Shown: piece after piece, positions 1 through 11,358 of the stretch
Position numbering within the stretch: the stretch's first letter is position 1
Layout: the number at the start of each line of letters is the position of its first letter
NCBI GenBank assembly: GCA_000146045.2
Contig: BK006945.2
Span: 1-64,000 of the forward strand
DNA: 64,000 nucleotides
Direction: 5' to 3'
Source: TPA_inf: Saccharomyces
Taxonomy: Eukaryota
The notes under the pieces: model-generated
Database searches by the model: none
Told to the model about the DNA's origin: nothing
The model's input: only the letters and a program-made list of their open reading frames with translations
Made by a program: the position numbers and the translations under genes

Positions 1-76
1 CACACACACACACCACCCACACACCACACCACACACCACACCACACACCACACCACACCCACACACCCACACACAC
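1..76. repeat. Terminal telomeric repeat tract, C1-3A on the + strand (TG1-3 on the - strand)
   Basis: Irregular (CA)n / (C2-3A)n run 'cacacacacacaccacccacacaccacacc...' from base 1. It ends abruptly at 'ttttcacatctacc', where Y' sequence begins. Confidence 0.9.
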
Positions 77-584
77 TTTTCACATCTACCTCTACTCTCG
101 CTGTCATACCTTACCCGGCTTTCTGACCGAAATTAAAAAAAAAATGAAAATGAAACCCTGTTCTTTAGCCCTACAGCACTTCTACATAGCCCTAAATAGC
201 CCTAAATAGCCCTCATGTACGTCTCCTCCAAGCCCTGTTGTCTCTTACCCGGATGTTCAACCAAAAGCTACTTACTACCTTTATTTTATGTTTACTTTTT
301 ATAGATTGTCTTTTTATCCTACTCTTTCCCACTTGTCTCTCGCTACTGCCGTGCAACAAACACTAAATCAAAACAGTGAAATACTACTACATCAAAACGC
401 ATATTCCCTAGAAAAAAAAATTTCTTACAATATACTATACTACACAATACATAATCACTGACTTTCGTAACAACAATTTCCTTCACTCTCCAACTTCTCT
501 GCTCGAATCTCTACATAGTAATATTATATCAAATCTACCGTCTGGAACATCATTCGCTATCCAGCTCTTTGTGAACCGCTACCA

Positions 585-3500
585 TCAGCATGGTACCCTC
601 GTGTTATCTGCAGCGAGAACTTCAACGTTTGCCAAATCAACCCAATGTGGTAACAACCACACCTCCGAAATCTGCTCCAAAAGATATTCCAGTTTCTGCC
701 GAAATGTTTTATTGTAGAACAGCCCTATCAGCATCGACAGGAATGCCGTCCAATGCGGCACTTTAGATGGGGTAACTCCCAGCGCAAGCTGATCTCGCAA
801 GTGCATTCCTAGACTTAATTCATATCTGCTCCTCAACTGTCGATGATGCCTGCTAAACTGCAGCTTGACGTACTGCGGACCCTGCAGTCCAGCGCTCGTC
901 ATGGAACGCAAACGCTGAAAAACTCCAACTTTCTCGAGCGCTTCCACAAAGACCGTATCGTCTTTTGCCTCCCATTCTTCCCGGCACTTTTTCTCGTCCC
1001 AGTTCAAAAAGTACTGCAGCACCTCTGTCTTCGATTCACGCAAGTTGCTCCATACTTTATAATACAACTCTTTGATCTGCCTTCCAGACATGCGGAAAAC
1101 TTGGCTCCCTTGCTTGCCTCTTGTCGAATCCAATACACTAATTGTTTCTCTTCTTCTAGTAATGGCCAGGTACCAAGCATAATTTCTCTGTATCTGAGAG
1201 TAGATCTCTCCCCTTTTTACGCTAAAAAATTTCAAATACCCTACAGGGTCCCCATGATATGGCTCGATGTCTTCCAAGTATTCTTTGTATTCCTCGTCAT
1301 TTCGCAGCATTCTCTCCACAGCTAGTGCTTCCCAAGCCATCCTCCGATACGATACTTTCTGGCCAGCCCAACAGACACAGAGCTCGAACATCTTTTGACA
1401 GCCCTTGCATAATCCGTATTGTGTGAATACTCCCTCTGGGCAGAAGTATACGTCAATACCATAGAGGAAAAGATGTTTAATTTCGTCAGACCGAAATCCA
1501 AGAAACTGTAAGACATTCATATTCTCGGAAGTATTGGGAAATTGTGCTTTCAGTTTCTTTCTCTCTAGCAAAACCATTTGACTCCCTTTCCGCTTATACG
1601 ACTCTTTGTTAATGTCGGTGACTGGATGGAATCTATTATCCTCAGCATTGCCATCTTTATTGGCGTCCTCCTTGGCACTAGCGTTGGTACTTTCAGTGGT
1701 AGTAGCATTAGTGCTGGAGTTGGTGCTAGCAGTGGTAGTAGCACTAGTGTTGGAGTTGGTACCTTCAGTGGTAGTAGCATTAGTGCTGGAGTTGGTACTT
1801 TCAGTGGTAGTAGCATTAGTGTTGGAGTTGGTACTTTCAGTGGTAGTCGCACTAGTCCTGACGTTGATGCTGGCAGTGGTAGTAGCATTAGTGCTGGAGT
1901 CGGTACTTTCAGTGGTAGTAGCACTAGTGTTGGAGTCGGTACTTTCGGTGGTAGTAGCACTAGTGTTGGAGTTGGTACTTTCAGTGGTAGTCGCACTAGT
2001 CCTGACGTTGATGCTGGCAGTGGTAGTAGCACTAGTCCTGACGTTGGTGCTGGCAGTGGTAGTAGCATTAGTGCTGGAGTTGGTACTTTCAGTGGTAGTC
2101 GCACTAGTCCTGACGTTGATGCTGGCAGTGGTAGTAGCACTAGTCCTGACGTTGGTGCTGGCAGTGGTAGTAGCATTAGTGCTGGAGTTGGTAGTCGCAT
2201 TGGTACTGGCATTAGCACTACCATGAATGCACGTGTTGCTGTCCTCATCACTGCTGCAATACTTTCTGCACCTGTCACTGCTATTGCTCTCCTGGAAGCT
2301 AGACGGTAACGCAACGATCGACATGGAAGCTGTCGCCTGTTTTTCAGCCAATCTGTCCATTCTTTCTATCAGTTCCACTGTGTCAGCAGACAGGTCTGTC
2401 CTGGAGCCACAGCATCCAACATGCTGGCCCTTTTTTCCTTTCTTTGATTCAAGTCCATAGAACTCGCGTACCTGTTCGGTTATACAGCCTTCCTTAATCG
2501 GTGGTAATTCACCCTTACGATTCCTTGCCGCCCAACTGTTTTTTCTAGATAATAGATAACAGAGGCCCCCATCTCTTAGTCTCCCTACGCCTTGAATGAG
2601 CTCAATAATATTAAGTCTATTATCAAGCATGATCACCATCATCAATTGCTTAATGTCAATTCCTTCAGTCACTAATTTCGTTCCGATGAGAACTCGCATG
2701 CTACCGTCAGTGACAAACTCCTTTGTGCGAGACACCTTTTCTGCAGCACCCAGCTTCCCGTGTATCCATACCACCCTAAAATACTTTCTCCAAGAGCAGG
2801 CCAATTCTTCCACTTCGTTGGTTGTGCTTGCAACTACAATGGCCTTCGACTCTGGTTCAATTTCAAAGAGGGCTAAAAGAAGCTTCAGTGCTTCTTCGGG
2901 CTGTGATTCCACTTTCTTCCAAATTTTATGAACATGCCCTAAAGGCACCTCGGATTTCTCCTTGATTAGATTAAACATCCGTGTTGGATAGCTGGATAGA
3001 CCTCTGCTGAGATCTTCCGACCGTTTGAGCTCGTTGATGTCCATCGACTTCTTGGCCAGTCCCGTAAGCCCAATACGCTGCAACGCAGCATCAGCTACAG
3101 CCTCAGGTGCTGTGCCGCTCAAAAAGATTGCTTTCTCAAAAGCGTCAAAATCAAGGTTAGTTATGCCCCCAAATTGCGACTGCCGGTAGACCTCCGTTTC
3201 AAAGTTGTGAAACTCATCTACAATGAGGTAACCCAATTTTACGTTGTTGGTCCTAAAGGTGCACTCAACAATATTCTCCCACGCAGCTATCCTGTCTGTG
3301 AAATTAGTGCTAGCAAGATCATCGTAGATCCCCACGTATAAATCAGTAACGCCATCGCAACCTTCTTCAATAAAGTTTCTTACAGGGGCCACATTCAAGC
3401 AACCGCATCGGCCCAACCTGATCATGCAATTAGCAAGCAACACTGTGTACGGTACAAACAGAAACGACACATATTTCACGTCGCCCTTAGACGCCAGTGC

Positions 3501-3938
3501 TATCAAGGGGAGATGAAATAACTCCGTCTTACCATAGCCCGGTGGGGCCTGTACTGCCACAGAGGGTGTGTCTGCCATGTATATTTCATGACATAAGCGC
3601 AACTGATGCAAGTCCCTGAATTCAAAGGAGCTGCCAAAGAGTTTCTGGCCTGCGACGAGGATATCGTTTGTACTCTTGGGCTCTCGGGGCCTTTTTCGCG
3701 TTACTCTTGAAATTTTTTGATCATGATCTGAACTCGCCGCCTCACCTGCCACTACGTCTTCCGCATTCCGAGTACTAGAGAATGAACAATGGTAGTCGCT
3801 TTCAAGGCCTAACCATTGAATCCAGCGCTCGGAAGTGAGTCCGTCAAGCGTCTTTAGTCGAGGCTCCGATGAACCGTTCTTGTTGTATCGTCGACGTATA
3901 CGTTGCGCTGTAGCTCTGGATAACGGTAAGCGTATCAC
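585..3938 (-). CDS. YLL067C: Y' element ATP-dependent helicase ORF (YLL067C-type), probably the 3' exon of a longer spliced/read-through gene. It has a Walker A motif (APPGYGKTE), a DEFH box, helicase C-terminal motifs and a Ser/Thr/Asn-rich 12-aa tandem repeat region.
   Basis: Long ORF whose translation shows GKT and DEFH helicase motifs. There is no ATG at the 5' end: codon 3936..3938 is GTG. TGA stop at 585..587. Confidence 0.8.
1683..2220. repeat. Tandem array of a 36-nt unit (consensus ggtagtagcattagtgctggagttggtactttcagt) inside the Y' helicase ORF. It encodes 12-aa T(E/A)STNS(S/N)TNATT repeats.
   Basis: Direct 36-nt periodicity visible in the sequence. This array is 108 nt (3 units) longer than in copy 2. 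Confidence 0.85.
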
Positions 3939-3992
3939 CGTAAGCTCGTCAATTATTTTTGAGAGCCGCGGTCATTTTGTTAGTATCTCTTC

Positions 3993-4808
3993 TCAACTTG
4001 GGCAGCACACATGCAAAACATCACCCAATCGGTCCTTTTTGTTCATCATATCGTTACATATCTGTGAAAAGTACTTTATCTCAATGGGTTTACGTGGGCA
4101 TAGATCACGCTTCAGCCGCTCTGTGTCGACTTTCTTTTCGCCAGGTAAACTTGCTTGGTATGCAGAAAAAATCGATAGCTCATCTACGTGTAGTAACAAA
4201 AACATGTGGGGTGCCAAATTGTACCCATATCTCCTTATGGTGCTTTTCTGAAGACTCCTTACAATAGGTGCGCCAGAAACAAAGTCAGTGAAAGTACGCA
4301 TCGTAGAGCTGTCGTTCGGCCTGGCACTCGCTATTTCGTGACAACGTTCCAGGACACGGAAACTCAACTCATTATAGTATCCTCTGTTGAGGTAAAAAAG
4401 AGAAAGGGTATCGTAATCCTTTCTATTGAATTTCAAAGTATGCACTTGAAACAACGTGTAGACCATCAAGTTGATTTTCTTGGGAATAAGATACTTTGAA
4501 GGGATTGGTCCGCCCTGGAAATCTGGTTCGTCTTCAACAAACGTCAGGAACTTTTGTACATTTTTCCCGACCATGACGGAAACGACAATTTTTTCAAAAG
4601 ACCTTTTCCTATCCATTGCACCAGTTCTGAATTTTACCACTTTGATTAGGCCAGACTTTTCGTCTTCGTAGAATGACCGCACTTCCGTGGGGATCGATTC
4701 AAATAAAGTTATTGAGGGACAATGTACCAAGTCGTTTTTGTTATTTAGAGCCGACTCAAACTCGTCAAAGTTTGCTTTTTCAAACTTACGCCTATCGGAA
4801 ACTTTCAT
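3993..4808 (-). CDS. Y' element ORF1 (271 aa), upstream of the helicase ORF and in the same frame. It is separated from the helicase ORF by a single TGA at 3993..3995. The annotated Y' gene may start at the internal ATG at 4301.
   Basis: ORF present identically in both Y' copies. It shares a frame with 585..3938; 4808 and 3938 are both ≡2 mod 3. Confidence 0.55.
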
Positions 4809-5660
4809 TTTATTTTTGTAAGTTTCGAAATTAACAATAGTATGTTGATTGTTATGCTTTTTGACAAGAAATCCATCAATATAAACAAAAGATTGTCCAG
4901 TTTCCGTCTTATCATCATCTAAGAATGTAATAATTAAGCTACTCTATTGAGAAGAAGCAGAATCTGCGCTATGCAGGTGCAAATCTCCAGCAGCAGCAAA
5001 GAAAATTCAGTTAATAAGAAATCTCACTAAGATAAGCGACTGTCTGTCCCAACATAGAAAACAGAAGGATGTCTCATTCATCCTTGATTTCCGGCCTGCA
5101 AAAATAAAGTAGTCGGTACGTACGTTCGTTTTCAATTTCCATGGTGCACAGTATCTTAACTATCTGCTTAGTCGAGGAGAACCAGGATTCTGTTCGTTGC
5201 TCAGCCGCTTCGTGGATATTCTCTTGGATACTTTAAATATGGACCTACGCTTAGCCTGCGCTTAGCCTACAACTTCTTCCGCTCTCGAAAAGACCAATAT
5301 AATAGAAAGTTATAAATTACATTTCCTTATTAGGTATACGACCTCGCGCTTCGAAGTAGAGGAGCCCTTTTTGGCGTACCTACATATGGCGCGTCAGACA
5401 GACAAACTTCCCCCAAAAATGTATTACCCTGCCGAATAAGAAAACAGACCCATTCACCCACGACGTATCAAGTTACTTCCTTGGTGCAATGTCCCACTAT
5501 AAAAAAATTCCTTGACGCTAGATCGTTGGACTAAAATCTGCGTCACAATCGCCTAAACAGGAAATATTGCCTATTTTCGTACAAGGTTACTTCCTAGATG
5601 CTATATGTCCCTACGGCCTTGTCTAACACCATCCAGCATGCAATACAGTGACATATATAT

Positions 5661-5725
5661 ACACCACACCCACACACCACACCCACACCACACCCACACC
5701 CACACACACCACACACCCACACACT
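5661..5725. repeat. Internal telomeric (C1-3A/TG1-3) tract between the two Y' copies
   Basis: 'acaccacacccacacaccacacccacaccacacccacacccacacacaccacacacccacacac', flanked by Y' end sequence on both sides. Confidence 0.85.
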
Positions 5726-6119: not shown

Positions 6120-9100
6120 TCACTCTCCAACTTCTCTGCTCGAATCTCTACATAGTAATATTATATCAAATCTACCGTCTGGAACATCATCGCTATCCAG
6201 CTCTTTGTGAACCGCTACCATCAGCATGTACAGCGGTACCCTCGTGTTATCTGCAGCGAGAACTTCAACGTTTGCCAAATCAACCCAATGTGGTAACAAC
6301 CACACCTCCGAAATCTGCTCCAAAAGATATTCCAGTTTCTGCCGAAATGTTTTATTGTAGAACAGCCCTATCAGCATCGACAGGAATGCCGTCCAATGCG
6401 GCACTTTAGATGGGGTAACTCCCAGCGCAAGCTGATCTCGCAAGTGCATTCCTAGACTTAATTCATATCTGCTCCTCAACTGTCGATGATGCCTGCTAAA
6501 CTGCAGCTTGACGTACTGCGGACCCTGCAGTCCAGCGCTCGTCATGGAACGCAAACGCTGAAAAACTCCAACTTTCTCGAGCGCTTCCACAAAGACCGTA
6601 TCGTCTTTTGCCTCCCATTCTTCCCGGCACTTTTTCTCGTCCCAGTTCAAAAAGTACTGCAGCACCTCTGTCTTCGATTCACGCAAGTTGCTCCATACTT
6701 TATAATACAACTCTTTGATCTGCCTTCCAGACATGCGGAAAACTTGGCTCCCTTGCTTGCCTCTTGTCGAATCCAATACACTAATTGTTTCTCTTCTTCT
6801 AGTAATGGCCAGGTACCAAGCATAATTTCTCTGTATCTGAGAGTAGATCTCTCCCCTTTTTACGCTAAAAAATTTCAAATACCCTACAGGGTCCCCATGA
6901 TATGGCTCGATGTCTTCCAAGTATTCTTTGTATTCCTCGTCATTTCGCAGCATTCTCTCCACAGCTAGTGCTTCCCAAGCCATCCTCCGATACGATACTT
7001 TCTGGCCAGCCCAACAGACACAGAGCCCGAACATCTTTTGACAGCCCTTGCATAATCCGTATTGTGTGAATACTCCCTCTGGGCAGAAGTATATGTCAAT
7101 ACCATAGAGGAAAAGATGTTTAATTTCGTCAGACCGAAATCCAAGAAACTGTAAGACATTCATATTCTCGGAAGTATTGGGAAATTGTGCTTTCAGTTTC
7201 TTTCTCTCTAGCAAAACCATTTGACTCCCTTTCCGCTTATACGACTCTTTGTTAATGTCGGTGACTGGATGGAATCTATTATCCTCAGCATTGCCATCTT
7301 TATTGGCGTCCTCCTTGGCACTAGCGTTGGTACTTTCAGTGGTAGTGGCATTAGTGCTGGAGTTGGTGCTAGCAGTGGTAGTGGCATTAGTGCTGGAGTT
7401 GGTGCTAGCAGTGGTAGTAGCACTAGTGTTGGAGTCGGTACTTTCGGTGGTAGTAGCACTAGTGTTGGAGTCGGTACTTTCGGTGGTAGTAGCACTAGTG
7501 TTGGAGTTGGTACTTTCAGTGGTAGTCGCACTAGTCCTGACGTTGATGCTGGCAGTGGTAGTAGCACTAGTCCTGACGTTGGTGCTGGCAGTGGTAGTAG
7601 CATTAGTGCTGGAGTTGGTACTTTCAGTGGTAGTCGCACTAGTCCTGACGTTGATGCTGGCAGTGGTAGTAGCACTAGTCCTGACGTTGGTGCTGGCAGT
7701 GGTAGTAGCATTAGTGCTGGAGTTGGTAGTCGCATTGGTACTGGCATTAGCACTACCATGAATGCACGTGTTGCTGTCCTCATCACTGCTGCAATACTTT
7801 CTGCACCTGTCACTGCTATTGCTCTCCTGGAAGCTAGACGGTAACGCAACGATCGACATGGAAGCTGTCGCCTGTTTTTCAGCCAATCTGTCCATTCTTT
7901 CTATCAGTTCCACTGTGTCAGCAGACAGGTCTGTCCTGGAGCCACAGCATCCAACATGCTGGCCCTTTTTTCCTTTCTTTGATTCAAGTCCATAGAACTC
8001 GCGTACCTGTTCGGTTATACAGCCTTCCTTAATCGGTGGTAATTCACCCTTACGATTCCTTGCCGCCCAACTGTTTTTTCTAGATAATAGATAACAGAGG
8101 CCCCCATCTCTTAGTCTCCCTACGCCTTGAATGAGCTCAATAATATTAAGTCTATTATCAAGCATGATCACCATCATCAATTGCTTAATGTCAATTCCTT
8201 CAGTCACTAATTTCGTTCCGATGAGAACTCGCATGCTACCGTCAGTGACAAACTCCTTTGTGCGAGACACCTTTTCTGCAGCACCCAGCTTCCCGTGTAT
8301 CCATACCACCCTAAAATACTTTCTCCAAGAGCAGGCCAATTCTTCCACTTCGTTGGTTGTGCTTGCAACTACAATGGCCTTCGACTCTGGTTCAATTTCA
8401 AAGAGGGCTAAAAGAAGCTTCAGTGCTTCTTCGGGCTGTGATTCCACTTTCTTCCAAATTTTATGAACATGCCCTAAAGGCACCTCGGATTTCTCCTTGA
8501 TTAGATTAAACATCCGTGTTGGATAGCTGGATAGACCTCTGCTGAGATCTTCCGACCGTTTGAGCTCGTTGATGTCCATCGACTTCTTGGCCAGTCCCGT
8601 AAGCCCAATACGCTGCAACGCAGCATCAGCTACAGCCTCAGGTGCTGTGCCGCTCAAAAAGATTGCTTTCTCAAAAGCGTCAAAATCAAGGTTAGTTATG
8701 CCCCCAAATTGCGACTGCCGGTAGACCTCCGTTTCAAAGTTGTGAAACTCATCTACAATGAGGTAACCCAATTTTACGTTGTTGGTCCTAAAGGTGCACT
8801 CAACAATATTCTCCCACGCAGCTATCCTGTCTGTGAAATTAGTGCTAGCAAGATCATCGTAGATCCCCACGTATAAATCAGTAACGCCATCGCAACCTTC
8901 TTCAATAAAGTTTCTTACAGGGGCCACATTCAAGCAACCGCATCGGCCCAACCTGATCATGCAATTAGCAAGCAACACTGTGTACGGTACAAACAGAAAC
9001 GACACATATTTCACGTCGCCCTTAGACGCCAGTGCTATCAAGGGGAGATGAAATAACTCCGTCTTACCATAGCCCGGTGGGGCCTGTACTGCCACAGAGG

Positions 9101-9473
9101 GTGTGTCTGCCATGTATATTTCATGACATAAGCGCAACTGATGCAAGTCCCTGAATTCAAAGGAGCTGCCAAAGAGTTTCTGGCCTGCGACGAGGATATC
9201 GTTTGTACTCTTGGGCTCTCGGGGCCTTTTTCGCGTTACTCTTGAAATTTTTTGATCATGATCTGAACTCGCCGCCTCACCTGCCACTACGTCTTCCGCA
9301 TTCCGAGTACTAGAGAATGAACAATGGTAGTCGCTTTCAAGGCCTAACCATTGAATCCAGCGCTCGGAAGTGAGTCCGTCAAGCGTCTTTAGTCGAGGCT
9401 CCGATGAACCGTTCTTGTTGTATCGTCGACGTATACGTTGCGCTGTAGCTCTGGATAACGGTAAGCGTATCAC
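6120..9473 (-). CDS. YLL066C: Y' element ATP-dependent helicase ORF (YLL066C-type). It matches copy 1 except for a shorter repeat array, a 37-aa longer C-terminus and a few substitutions.
   Basis: 1117-aa ORF with GKT/DEFH motifs. It starts at GTG rather than ATG. TGA stop at 6120..6122. Confidence 0.8.
7326..7755. repeat. 36-nt tandem repeat array in Y' copy 2, shorter than in copy 1
   Basis: Same unit as 1683..2220. The copy-2 antisense ORF is 213 aa against 249 aa in copy 1. Confidence 0.8.
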
Positions 9474-9527
9474 CGTAAGCTCGTCAATTATTTTTGAGAG
9501 CCGCGGTCATTTTGTTAGTATCTCTTC

Positions 9528-10343
9528 TCAACTTGGGCAGCACACATGCAAAACATCACCCAATCGGTCCTTTTTGTTCATCATATCGTTACATATCTGT
9601 GAAAAGTACTTTATCTCAATGGGTTTACGTGGGCATAGATCACGCTTCAGCCGCTCTGTGTCGACTTTCTTTTCGCCAGGTAAACTTGCTTGGTATGCAG
9701 AAAAAATCGATAGCTCATCTACGTGTAGTAACAAAAACATGTGGGGTGCCAAATTGTACCCATATCTCCTTATGGTGCTTTTCTGAAGACTCCTTACAAT
9801 AGGTGCGCCAGAAACAAAGTCAGTGAAAGTACGCATCGTAGAGCTGTCGTTCGGCCTGGCACTCGCTATTTCGTGACAACGTTCCAGGACACGGAAACTC
9901 AACTCATTATAGTATCCTCTGTTGAGGTAAAAAAGAGAAAGGGTATCGTAATCCTTTCTATTGAATTTCAAAGTATGCACTTGAAACAACGTGTAGACCA
10001 TCAAGTTGATTTTCTTGGGAATAAGATACTTTGAAGGGATTGGTCCGCCCTGGAAATCTGGTTCGTCTTCAACAAACGTCAGGAACTTTTGTACATTTTT
10101 CCCGACCATGACGGAAACGACAATTTTTTCAAAAGACCTTTTCCTATCCATTGCACCAGTTCTGAATTTTACCACTTTGATTAGGCCAGACTTTTCGTCT
10201 TCGTAGAATGACCGCACTTCCGTGGGGATCGATTCAAATAAAGTTATTGAGGGACAATGTACCAAGTCGTTTTTGTTATTTAGAGCCGACTCAAACTCGT
10301 CAAAGTTTGCTTTTTCAAACTTACGCCTATCGGAAACTTTCAT
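9528..10343 (-). CDS. Y' ORF1 (271 aa), copy 2
   Basis: Identical protein to 3993..4808. Confidence 0.55.
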
Positions 10344-11195
10344 TTTATTTTTGTAAGTTTCGAAATTAACAATAGTATGTTGATTGTTATGCTTTTTGAC
10401 AAGAAATCCATCAATATAAACAAAAGATTGTCCAGTTTCCGTCTTATCATCATCTAAGAATGTAATAATTAAGCTACTCTATTGAGAAGAAGCAGAATCT
10501 GCGCTATGCAGGTGCAAATCTCCAGCAGCAGCAAAGAAAATTCAGTTAATAAGAAATCTCACTAAGATAAGCGACTGTCTGTCCCAACATAGAAAACAGA
10601 AGGATGTCTCATTCATCCTTGATTTCCGGCCTGCAAAAATAAAGTAGTCGGTACGTACGTTCGTTTTCAATTTCCATGGTGCACAGTATCTTAACTATCT
10701 GCTTAGTCGAGGAGAACCAGGATTCTGTTCGTTGCTCAGCCGCTTCGTGGATATTCTCTTGGATACTTTAAATATGGACCTACGCTTAGCCTGCGCTTAG
10801 CCTACAACTTCTTCCGCTCTCGAAAAGACCAATATAATAGAAAGTTATAAATTACATTTCCTTATTAGGTATACGACCTCGCGCTTCGAAGTAGAGGAGC
10901 CCTTTTTGGCGTACCTACATATGGCGCGTCAGACAGACAAACTTCCCCCAAAAATGTATTACCCTGCCGAATAAGAAAACAGACCCATTCACCCACGACG
11001 TATCAAGTTACTTCCTTGGTGCAATGTCCCACTATAAAAAAATTCCTTGACGCTAGATCGTTGGACTAAAATCTGCGTCACAATCGCCTAAACAGGAAAT
11101 ATTGCCTATTTTCGTACAAGGTTACTTCCTAGATGCTATATGTCCCTACGGCCTTGTCTAACACCATCCAGCATGCAATACAGTGACATATATAT

Positions 11196-11358
11196 ACACC
11201 ACACCCACACACCACACCCACACACACACACCCACACCCACACCCACACACACACACCCACACACACCACACCCACACACCACACCCACACCCACACCAC
11301 ACCCACACACCCACACCCACACACCCACACCACACCCACACCCACACACACCCACACA
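11196..11358. repeat. Internal telomeric C1-3A tract at the Y'/X junction
   Basis: ~160 bp of irregular 'ccacacc/cacacac' repeats between the Y' end and X-element repeats. Confidence 0.9.

Follow-up and report, generated by a model that had tools for sequence, protein, structure and literature searches.

Background

Intron-like sequences in the Y' elements of yeast have been noted for more than 25 years. According to Talkish et al. 2019, molecular tests of the Y' introns annotated in SGD were negative; the same study detected two Y' introns by RNA-seq, neither of which fits the SGD annotation. Y' intron 1 lies on the left side of the element. Y' intron 2 is listed in the supplementary material of Schreiber et al. 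2015 as a 298-nucleotide (nt) intron in YRF1-5, YRF1-8 and YRF1-1 and as a 219-nt version in YLR464W. Five paralogous genes, YBL111C, YHR218W, YLL067C, YLL066C and YML133C, carry one and the same annotated intron (PMC3226532), which is the subject of this work.

We analysed this annotated intron in YLL067C, within a window of 64,000 nt (positions 1 to 64,000 of contig BK006945.2) whose left end is the left end of Saccharomyces cerevisiae S288C chromosome XII. The site in question is the junction between two open reading frames of YLL067C, designated ORF1 and ORF2. YLL066C is the second Y' copy in the window, a tandem twin of YLL067C at an offset of 5535 nt. Window coordinates are identical with the published chrXII coordinates of both genes, and all positions of junction features refer to the minus strand. 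Our analysis indicates that this site is very probably a deletion scar in a short-class Y' element, bridged by a hypothetical annotated intron that is most likely not spliced.

Results

The annotated intron at the junction of ORF1 and ORF2

ORF1 (3993..4808, in copy 2 9528..10343) comprises 271 amino acids (aa) from ATG 4808, its frame being open further upstream, and matches PF11603, a Sir1 ORC-binding-like family (1.5e-07). The ORF2 track (585..3938, in copy 2 6120..9473) comprises 1117 aa and contains the DEAD and Helicase_C domains (PF00270, 6e-13; PF00271, 2e-15). A first-pass annotation, made from the sequence alone, had placed the GTG start of the ORF2 track at 3938 and 9473, and it is indeed found there (3938..3936 in copy 1). 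The TGA that terminates ORF1 (3995..3993) is likewise present, and ORF1 and ORF2 share one frame. The claim of a frame open as far as a single TGA does not hold: a second in-frame TGA is located at 3974..3972. Between ORF1 and ORF2 there are thus two in-frame stops at a spacing of 21 nt, and ORF2 is open only from 3971.

Translation of join(585..3915,4015..4301) yields 1205 aa that are residue-for-residue identical to NP_013033.1, DAA09258.1 and CAA97522.1 ("Y' element ATP-dependent helicase"). This identity is a direct observation, and it follows from the exact match that the annotated intron of YLL067C is 4014..3916. It is a predicted 99-nt GC-AG intron (3916..4014) composed of GCATGT at the 5' site, the TACTAAC branch-point motif and a CAG acceptor (3916..3918), its distance to the branch A being 64 nt. 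Within the reference coding sequence, exon 1 (4015..4301, ATG 4301..4299) corresponds to the 3' part of ORF1, and exon 2 (585..3915) to ORF2 with both helicase domains. The same predicted intron occupies 9451..9549 in YLL066C (TACTAAC 9514..9520, GCATGT 9544..9549) with 100% identity, and identity between the two copies is also 100% over the wider segments 3850..4350 and 9385..9885. The predicted exon-exon junction reads GGTGATGTTTT followed by AGCTACAGCGCAACG; the corresponding junction 30-mer is GATTGGGTGATGTTTTAGCTACAGCGCAACG and the unspliced colinear sequence is GATGTTTTGCATGTGTGCTGCC. Peptide LGDVLATAQR is exclusive to the product spliced at the 99-nt intron.

The first-pass annotation had suggested a spliced gene, possibly starting at ATG 4301..4299, and a comparison with reference exon coordinates. 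This comparison verifies both the intron-containing annotation and the start, which is that of the annotated coding sequence. An existing gene model was thus rediscovered: the predicted intron entered the reference annotation with the sequence of chromosome XII and is already known. All three donor hexamers that had been put forward (GCATGT 4014, GTAACG 4057, GTACTT 4074) are located as claimed, and the first of them is the annotated donor while the other two are not. The reported lack of canonical GTATGT is correct for the minus strand of both Y' copies in their entirety. TACTAAC exists but was placed one base off, its proper position being 3985..3979 rather than 3986..3980 (9520..9514 in copy 2).

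Less can be retained of the proposed 3' site. An AG does occur at 3946/3945, and 3944 is the first position of a codon, but its context is GAG followed by C, and the reference annotation uses CAG 3918..3916. We enumerated all pairs of GT or GC donors and AG acceptors that preserve the frame and excise both stops. The sole short-intron pair with a donor matching at 5/6 positions is GCATGT 4014 with CAG 3916, that is, the 99-nt model. An intron that uses TACTAAC and AG 3946/3945, with exon 2 beginning at 3944 and some upstream donor, would have a typical branch-to-AG distance of 35 nt, and frame-compatible donors are available (GTGTGC 4010, GCAAGT 4154, GTAGAT 4187 and GTAAGG 4262). For example, GTGTGC 4010 paired with AG 3945 would give a 66-nt, frame-preserving intron with the junction GATGTTTTGCAT followed by CTTACGGTGATACG. 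However, every compatible donor matches the GTATGT consensus at only 4/6 positions, and the acceptor would be GAG, the least used acceptor class in yeast. In long Y' copies this AG (3945..3946) is exonic, on the 3' side of Y' intron 2. Such a junction is also missing from the rows of published junction tables described below; the exact protein look-up covered the 99-nt model only. Taken together, an intron ending at this AG is extremely unlikely.

Comparison of the junction with long Y' elements

Longer Y' DNA was compared with the window by blastn and MAFFT. The set consisted of three sequences from strain Y55 (L001-L003), a full-length long Y' element found in a Fusarium assembly (L004) and a Logan contig (L012); for the GCATGT site the copies aligned were L001, L004 and L012. 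Window positions 5600..4011 align with L004 61..1655, positions 4009..3829 align with L004 2258..2538 with gaps, and positions 3835..500 align with L004 2997..6266. The breakpoints of a large deletion can be read directly from the alignment: window 4011 equals L004 1655 and window 4009 equals L004 2258. Hence 602 nt of the long copy are absent and one unmatched G stands in their place at 4010, a net loss of 601 nt. Further deletions relative to L004 follow downstream, 14, 32, 23-24 and 31 nt in length, and then one of 458 nt.

The annotated donor GCATGT (4009..4014) straddles the large-deletion junction. GCAT belongs to the left flank, G4010 is the unmatched base and T4009 is the first base of the right flank. 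The corresponding long-copy sequence, TTTTGCAT followed by ATTATC, is not donor-like. The 14-nt deletion is located at 3953/3952 (AAAAATAA followed by TTGACGAG). A 56-nt patch (3953..4008) is thus enclosed between two deletions, neither of which is a multiple of three, and is out of the ancestral frame. ORF1 and ORF2 nevertheless lie in one frame because the net deletions (601 + 14 = 615 nt) add up to a multiple of three. Both TGAs sit in this patch (4008..3953), which is read in the wrong frame.

Protein homologues agree with this anatomy. Among ORF1 homologues there are proteins running past "DRLGD(V/I)LH" into IILRACALNFGAGPRGG, and long-form proteins read DRLGDILHIILRACAL through the homologous DNA. 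TACTAAC itself codes for (D)TN in long copies. Conservation of the 99-nt intron as an intron was not found: the homologous DNA in long copies is coding or part of a different intron. According to these alignments, the annotated intron excises a deletion scar of former coding sequence, and the donor-like GCATGT, which is found nowhere but at the deletion junction, was created by it.

The Logan contig L012 (948-1239) shares with the window the large deletion and the GCATGT at its junction, but retains what the window copy has lost in four small deletions (14, 32, 24 and 31 nt). Its ORF1 and ORF2 are in different frames and overlap one another. L012 represents an intermediate between the long and short Y' classes. 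Within positions 2333-2510 of L004, GCGGTCC is found where L012 and YLR464W have GCCGGTCC. This one-base difference splits the long frame into two overlapping ORFs; it could reflect either genuine variation or an error in the assembly.

Read-through, the other option named in the first-pass annotation, would join ORF1 to ORF2 without splicing. Their common frame speaks for it, and since the frame is shared, frameshifting is not required. The idea presupposed a single leaky stop and was rejected on that account, as two TGAs, at 3995..3993 and 3974..3972, have to be passed. Their contexts are TGA-G (3995) and TGA-C (3974), and the 6 codons between them are out-of-frame relic sequence. Leaky stops in yeast allow read-through of a few per cent each. 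A product that passes both would be vanishingly rare, and we ascribe next to no probability to this explanation.

The branch-point motif and Y' intron 2

For the published Y' intron 2, TACTAAC (here at 3979..3985) is tabulated as the branch-point motif. In the supplementary sequences of Schreiber et al. 2015 and Talkish et al. 2019, intron 2 of YRF1-1, YRF1-2, YRF1-4/YLR464W, YRF1-5 and YRF1-8 contains the same TACTAAC in the same context, GTGCTGCCCAAGTTGAGAAGAGATACTAACAAAATGACCGCGGCTCT, as found here. A supplementary transcript of Schreiber et al. 2015 gives the intron 2 junction as GGTATATCA followed by TCGCTGTTGCAATTGACGAGC. Intron 2 sequences in table S4 of Talkish et al. 2019 extend from GTATGTGGAAAA to GTGCTGCCCAAGTTGAGAAGAGATACTAACAAAATGACCGCGGCTCTTAAAAATAAAG, and an alternative GTATGT donor is located 26 nt downstream of the first one. 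The ends of the intron 2 sequences given in these supplements are GAGATACTAACAAAATGACCGCGGCTCTTAAAAATAAAG or GTGCTGCCCAAGTTGAGAAGAGATACTAACAAAATGACCGCGGCTCTTAAAAATAAAG, after which TC(A/G)CTGTTGCAATTGACGAG follows.

Intron 2 can be delimited in L004, where it runs from GTATGT 2019 (alternatively 2045) to AAG 2316 and measures exactly 298 nt; besides TACTAAC at L004 2282, that strand contains no other copy of the motif. The patch at window 4008..3953 corresponds by homology to approximately the last 56 nt of this intron, at its 3' end. The GTATGT donors, situated about 240-270 nt upstream of TACTAAC, lie inside the 602 nt missing from the window copy. The acceptor is the AAG that comes first downstream of the branch (ATAAAG followed by TC); the 14-nt deletion removed it. 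Since both the donors and the acceptor are deleted, Y' intron 2 cannot form in this copy.

Homology of TACTAAC with the motif of intron 2 is observed directly. The branch box accordingly represents a genuine splicing signal by descent, orphaned in this copy. By chance alone the heptamer is unremarkable: 12 occurrences were counted in the window on both strands, versus 7.2 +/- 2.4 expected from shuffles. Its occurrence at this particular site is accounted for by homology.

Published RNA data and splicing of the 99-nt intron

RNA evidence was taken from published junction tables, namely from the rows of the Schreiber et al. 2015 supplements for the five gene names and from the "telomeric" rows of table S4 of Talkish et al. 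2019. The "telomeric" rows considered (chrXII, chrXIII, chrII, chrVIII) list no junction at 3916..4014, 9451..9549 or the paralogous positions. The Schreiber rows for YLL067C, YLL066C, YML133C, YBL111C and YHR218W contain intron 1 only and no 99-nt junction. By comparison, intron 1 of short-class copies is represented in the S4 rows by 104 reads on chrXII (10442-10658 variants), 92 on chrII, 121 on chrVIII and 9 on chrXIII, about 330 summed.

GC-AG junctions are present in the same Talkish tables, among them those of SRC1 and of the standard COX5B intron with its GCATGT donor; therefore, the pipeline is not blind to a junction of this type. A literature search on GCAUGU retrieved HEH1/SRC1 papers only, and the COX5B precedent comes from the Talkish tables. 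Efficient splicing on the same transcripts would give counts comparable to those of intron 1, and the efficiency of 99-nt splicing is thus probably near zero in the conditions used. The suggestion of a spliced gene, sound as a description of the reference models of YLL067C and YLL066C, is not supported biologically: its acceptor is not the annotated one, tests are stated to have been negative and the 99-nt junction is missing from the table rows considered.

It is conceivable that the 99-nt GC-AG intron (4014..3916) is real, perhaps conditionally so, in meiosis, telomere crisis or survivors. Its removal would yield an ORF1-helicase fusion of 1205 aa from ATG 4301, or, if intron 1 is removed as well, of 1417 aa from ATG 5142. 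The model is retained in RefSeq/SGD, and excision from GCATGT to CAG by way of TACTAAC takes out both stops in a multiple of three. GCATGT is non-canonical at position 2, yet it functions in the standard COX5B intron, and a UACUAAC branch with a YAG acceptor (CAG) at a workable distance of 64 nt is present. On the other side, the rows of two studies that report both Y' and GC-AG junctions contain no junction reads for it, and negative test results are noted by Talkish et al. 2019. Moreover, the donor owes its existence to a deletion, and the "intron" itself used to be coding sequence. Further, the interval from GCATGT to CAG is not a multiple of three in L012, and ORF1 and ORF2 are in different frames there despite the same GCATGT. 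On balance we consider a real intron improbable. A variant of this idea is that the deletion made a GC-AG intron de novo, out of the new GCATGT and a borrowed TACTAAC, and that it is spliced only in meiosis or upon telomerase loss, thereby restoring the fusion; this seems still less probable.

Several points weigh against regarding the site as an unspliced scar. All three signals are individually credible, as GCAUGU works in COX5B, UACUAAC is perfect and CAG is a good acceptor. The length of the intron is exactly a multiple of three and both stops are removed with it. One GAG lies between the branch point and CAG 3916, and yeast splicing normally skips GAG. As to the tables, coverage of the S4 rows labelled "telomeric" was 49 out of 51, the other two being expected on chrXVI by sort order. 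The RNA-seq cultures were vegetative, rapamycin-treated or deficient in nonsense-mediated decay, and their reads are multi-mapping; meiosis and telomerase-negative survivors are outside this coverage. The negative molecular tests rest on the statement of Talkish et al. 2019. Finally, eleven short-class copies of other strains are identical to this one or differ by one single-nucleotide polymorphism outside the 99-nt intron. They are uninformative on constraint, and their invariance offers no population signal for or against splicing.

Local RNA folding of 4030..3900, in which a structure hiding GAG 3945 or bringing CAG 3916 nearer was sought, showed no significant structure (z = 0.19, on a par with shuffles) and favours neither reading. 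That the rows of both tables lack the junction is observed directly; that the predicted intron would be truly unspliced under all conditions is an inference.

Y' intron 1 and the likely product

Y' intron 1 is located at 4919..5123, with donor GTACGTA 5123, branch TATTAAC 5016..5010, acceptor TAG 4921..4919 and an alternative 3' site at 4939. In copy 2 it spans 10454..10658, also with published junction reads. Rows of table S1 of Schreiber et al. 2015 for chrXII(-) list 35 reads for 4919..5123 and 12 for 4939..5123 (YLL067C), and 29 for 10454..10658. The exon-exon junction of intron 1 is AAACGAAC followed by ATGATGATAAG. Upstream of the intron lies a 19-nt exon (5124..5142) with ATG 5142..5140, which joins ORF1 in frame once intron 1 is removed. 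The resulting ORF from ATG 5142 encodes 314 aa, with TGA 3995..3993 as its stop codon. Both intron 1 and the 19-nt ATG exon (4919..5142; in copy 2 10454..10677) are outside the RefSeq coding sequence of YLL067C, which begins at 4301 within ORF1. The first in-frame ATG of ORF2 is at 3578, and helicase-only products are annotated from this start in other strains.

Surroundings of the site

C1-3A telomere repeats form the terminal 76 nt of the window (1..76), and an internal telomere-like tract of C1-3A type (5661..5724) separates the two Y' copies. This subtelomeric placement beside C1-3A repeats and the tandem arrangement are those of a short-class Y' helicase gene. A long (AC)n tract at 11196..11358 is proximal to the second Y' copy. 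The junction region is also overlapped by a pair of antisense ORFs, of 138 aa (3835..4251) and 102 aa (3959..4267), on the plus strand.

A 36-nt tandem array (1683..2193 and 7326..7740) lies in the helicase ORF, within its C-terminal part rich in Ser, Thr and Asn. "Junctions" from chrXII 1762 to 1834, 1906, 1942 and 2086 are listed among the rows of table S4 of Talkish et al. 2019 with up to 1257 reads. They are 72, 144, 180 and 324 nt long, all multiples of 36, and look like repeat copy-number differences among Y' copies rather than splicing. Y' helicase sequences also occur in records assigned to Streptococcus uberis (WP_461254829.1) and to Fusarium falciforme (contig JAOQBJ010000075.1, with a long Y' element in full). 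These records almost certainly represent yeast contamination of the respective assemblies.

Discussion

The following course of events is suggested by the alignments. In long Y' copies, one frame extends from the Sir1-like N-terminal part through the region of the junction towards the helicase. In the short class, 602 nt have been swapped for one base at 4010 and a further 14 nt lost at 3953/3952, each change disrupting the frame and both jointly preserving it. The 56 nt between the two deletions have thereby been left out of frame, presenting two TGAs, while the frame of the flanking ORF1 and ORF2 was kept. The annotation spans this scar by a hypothetical 99-nt GC-AG intron that combines GCATGT, born at the junction, with TACTAAC, inherited from long copies, in which it belongs to Y' intron 2.

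If the 99-nt intron is not spliced, a transcript from which intron 1 (5123..4919) has been removed would encode the 314-aa ORF1 protein ending at TGA 3995. As to how, or whether, ORF2 is expressed, it would then be either untranslated or translated alone from an internal ATG such as that at 3578. The protein depicted by the 1205-aa models of YLL067C and YLL066C is probably never produced.

Biologically this result adds little, as the missing experimental support for the predicted intron is already in print, and its value is mainly for annotation. Its useful outcome is an anatomical explanation of the site, in which deletions left a scar, orphaned the branch box and gave rise to a GC donor at a junction; the real intron lies some 900 nt upstream. 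It also calls for caution, because a deletion scar in a repeat family can yield a perfect branch box together with splice sites that restore the frame.

Comparison with known systems

The sequence of the locus is fully identical to the RefSeq/SGD model (YLL067C, YLL066C, YML133C, YBL111C, YHR218W). This model, with CAG 3916 and GCATGT 4014, differs from the first-pass proposal, which had its 3' site at 3945 and an unsettled donor. Long-class Y' ORFs of YRF1 type are homologous to ORF1, to the scar region and to ORF2, and the window copy is distinguished from the long element L004 by the six deletions given above.

The standard yeast GC-AG intron of COX5B, with its GCAUGU 5' site, has the same set of signals (GCATGT, TACTAACA, CAG) as the predicted 99-nt intron. 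The two differ in that junction reads for COX5B number in the thousands and its branch lies 31 nt from the 3' splice site, whereas the 99-nt model has a distance of 64 nt, an intervening GAG and no listed reads. Y' intron 1, known from the left side of Y' elements, is present at 5123..4919 and 10658..10454, and junction reads in the tables consulted fall at exactly these coordinates.

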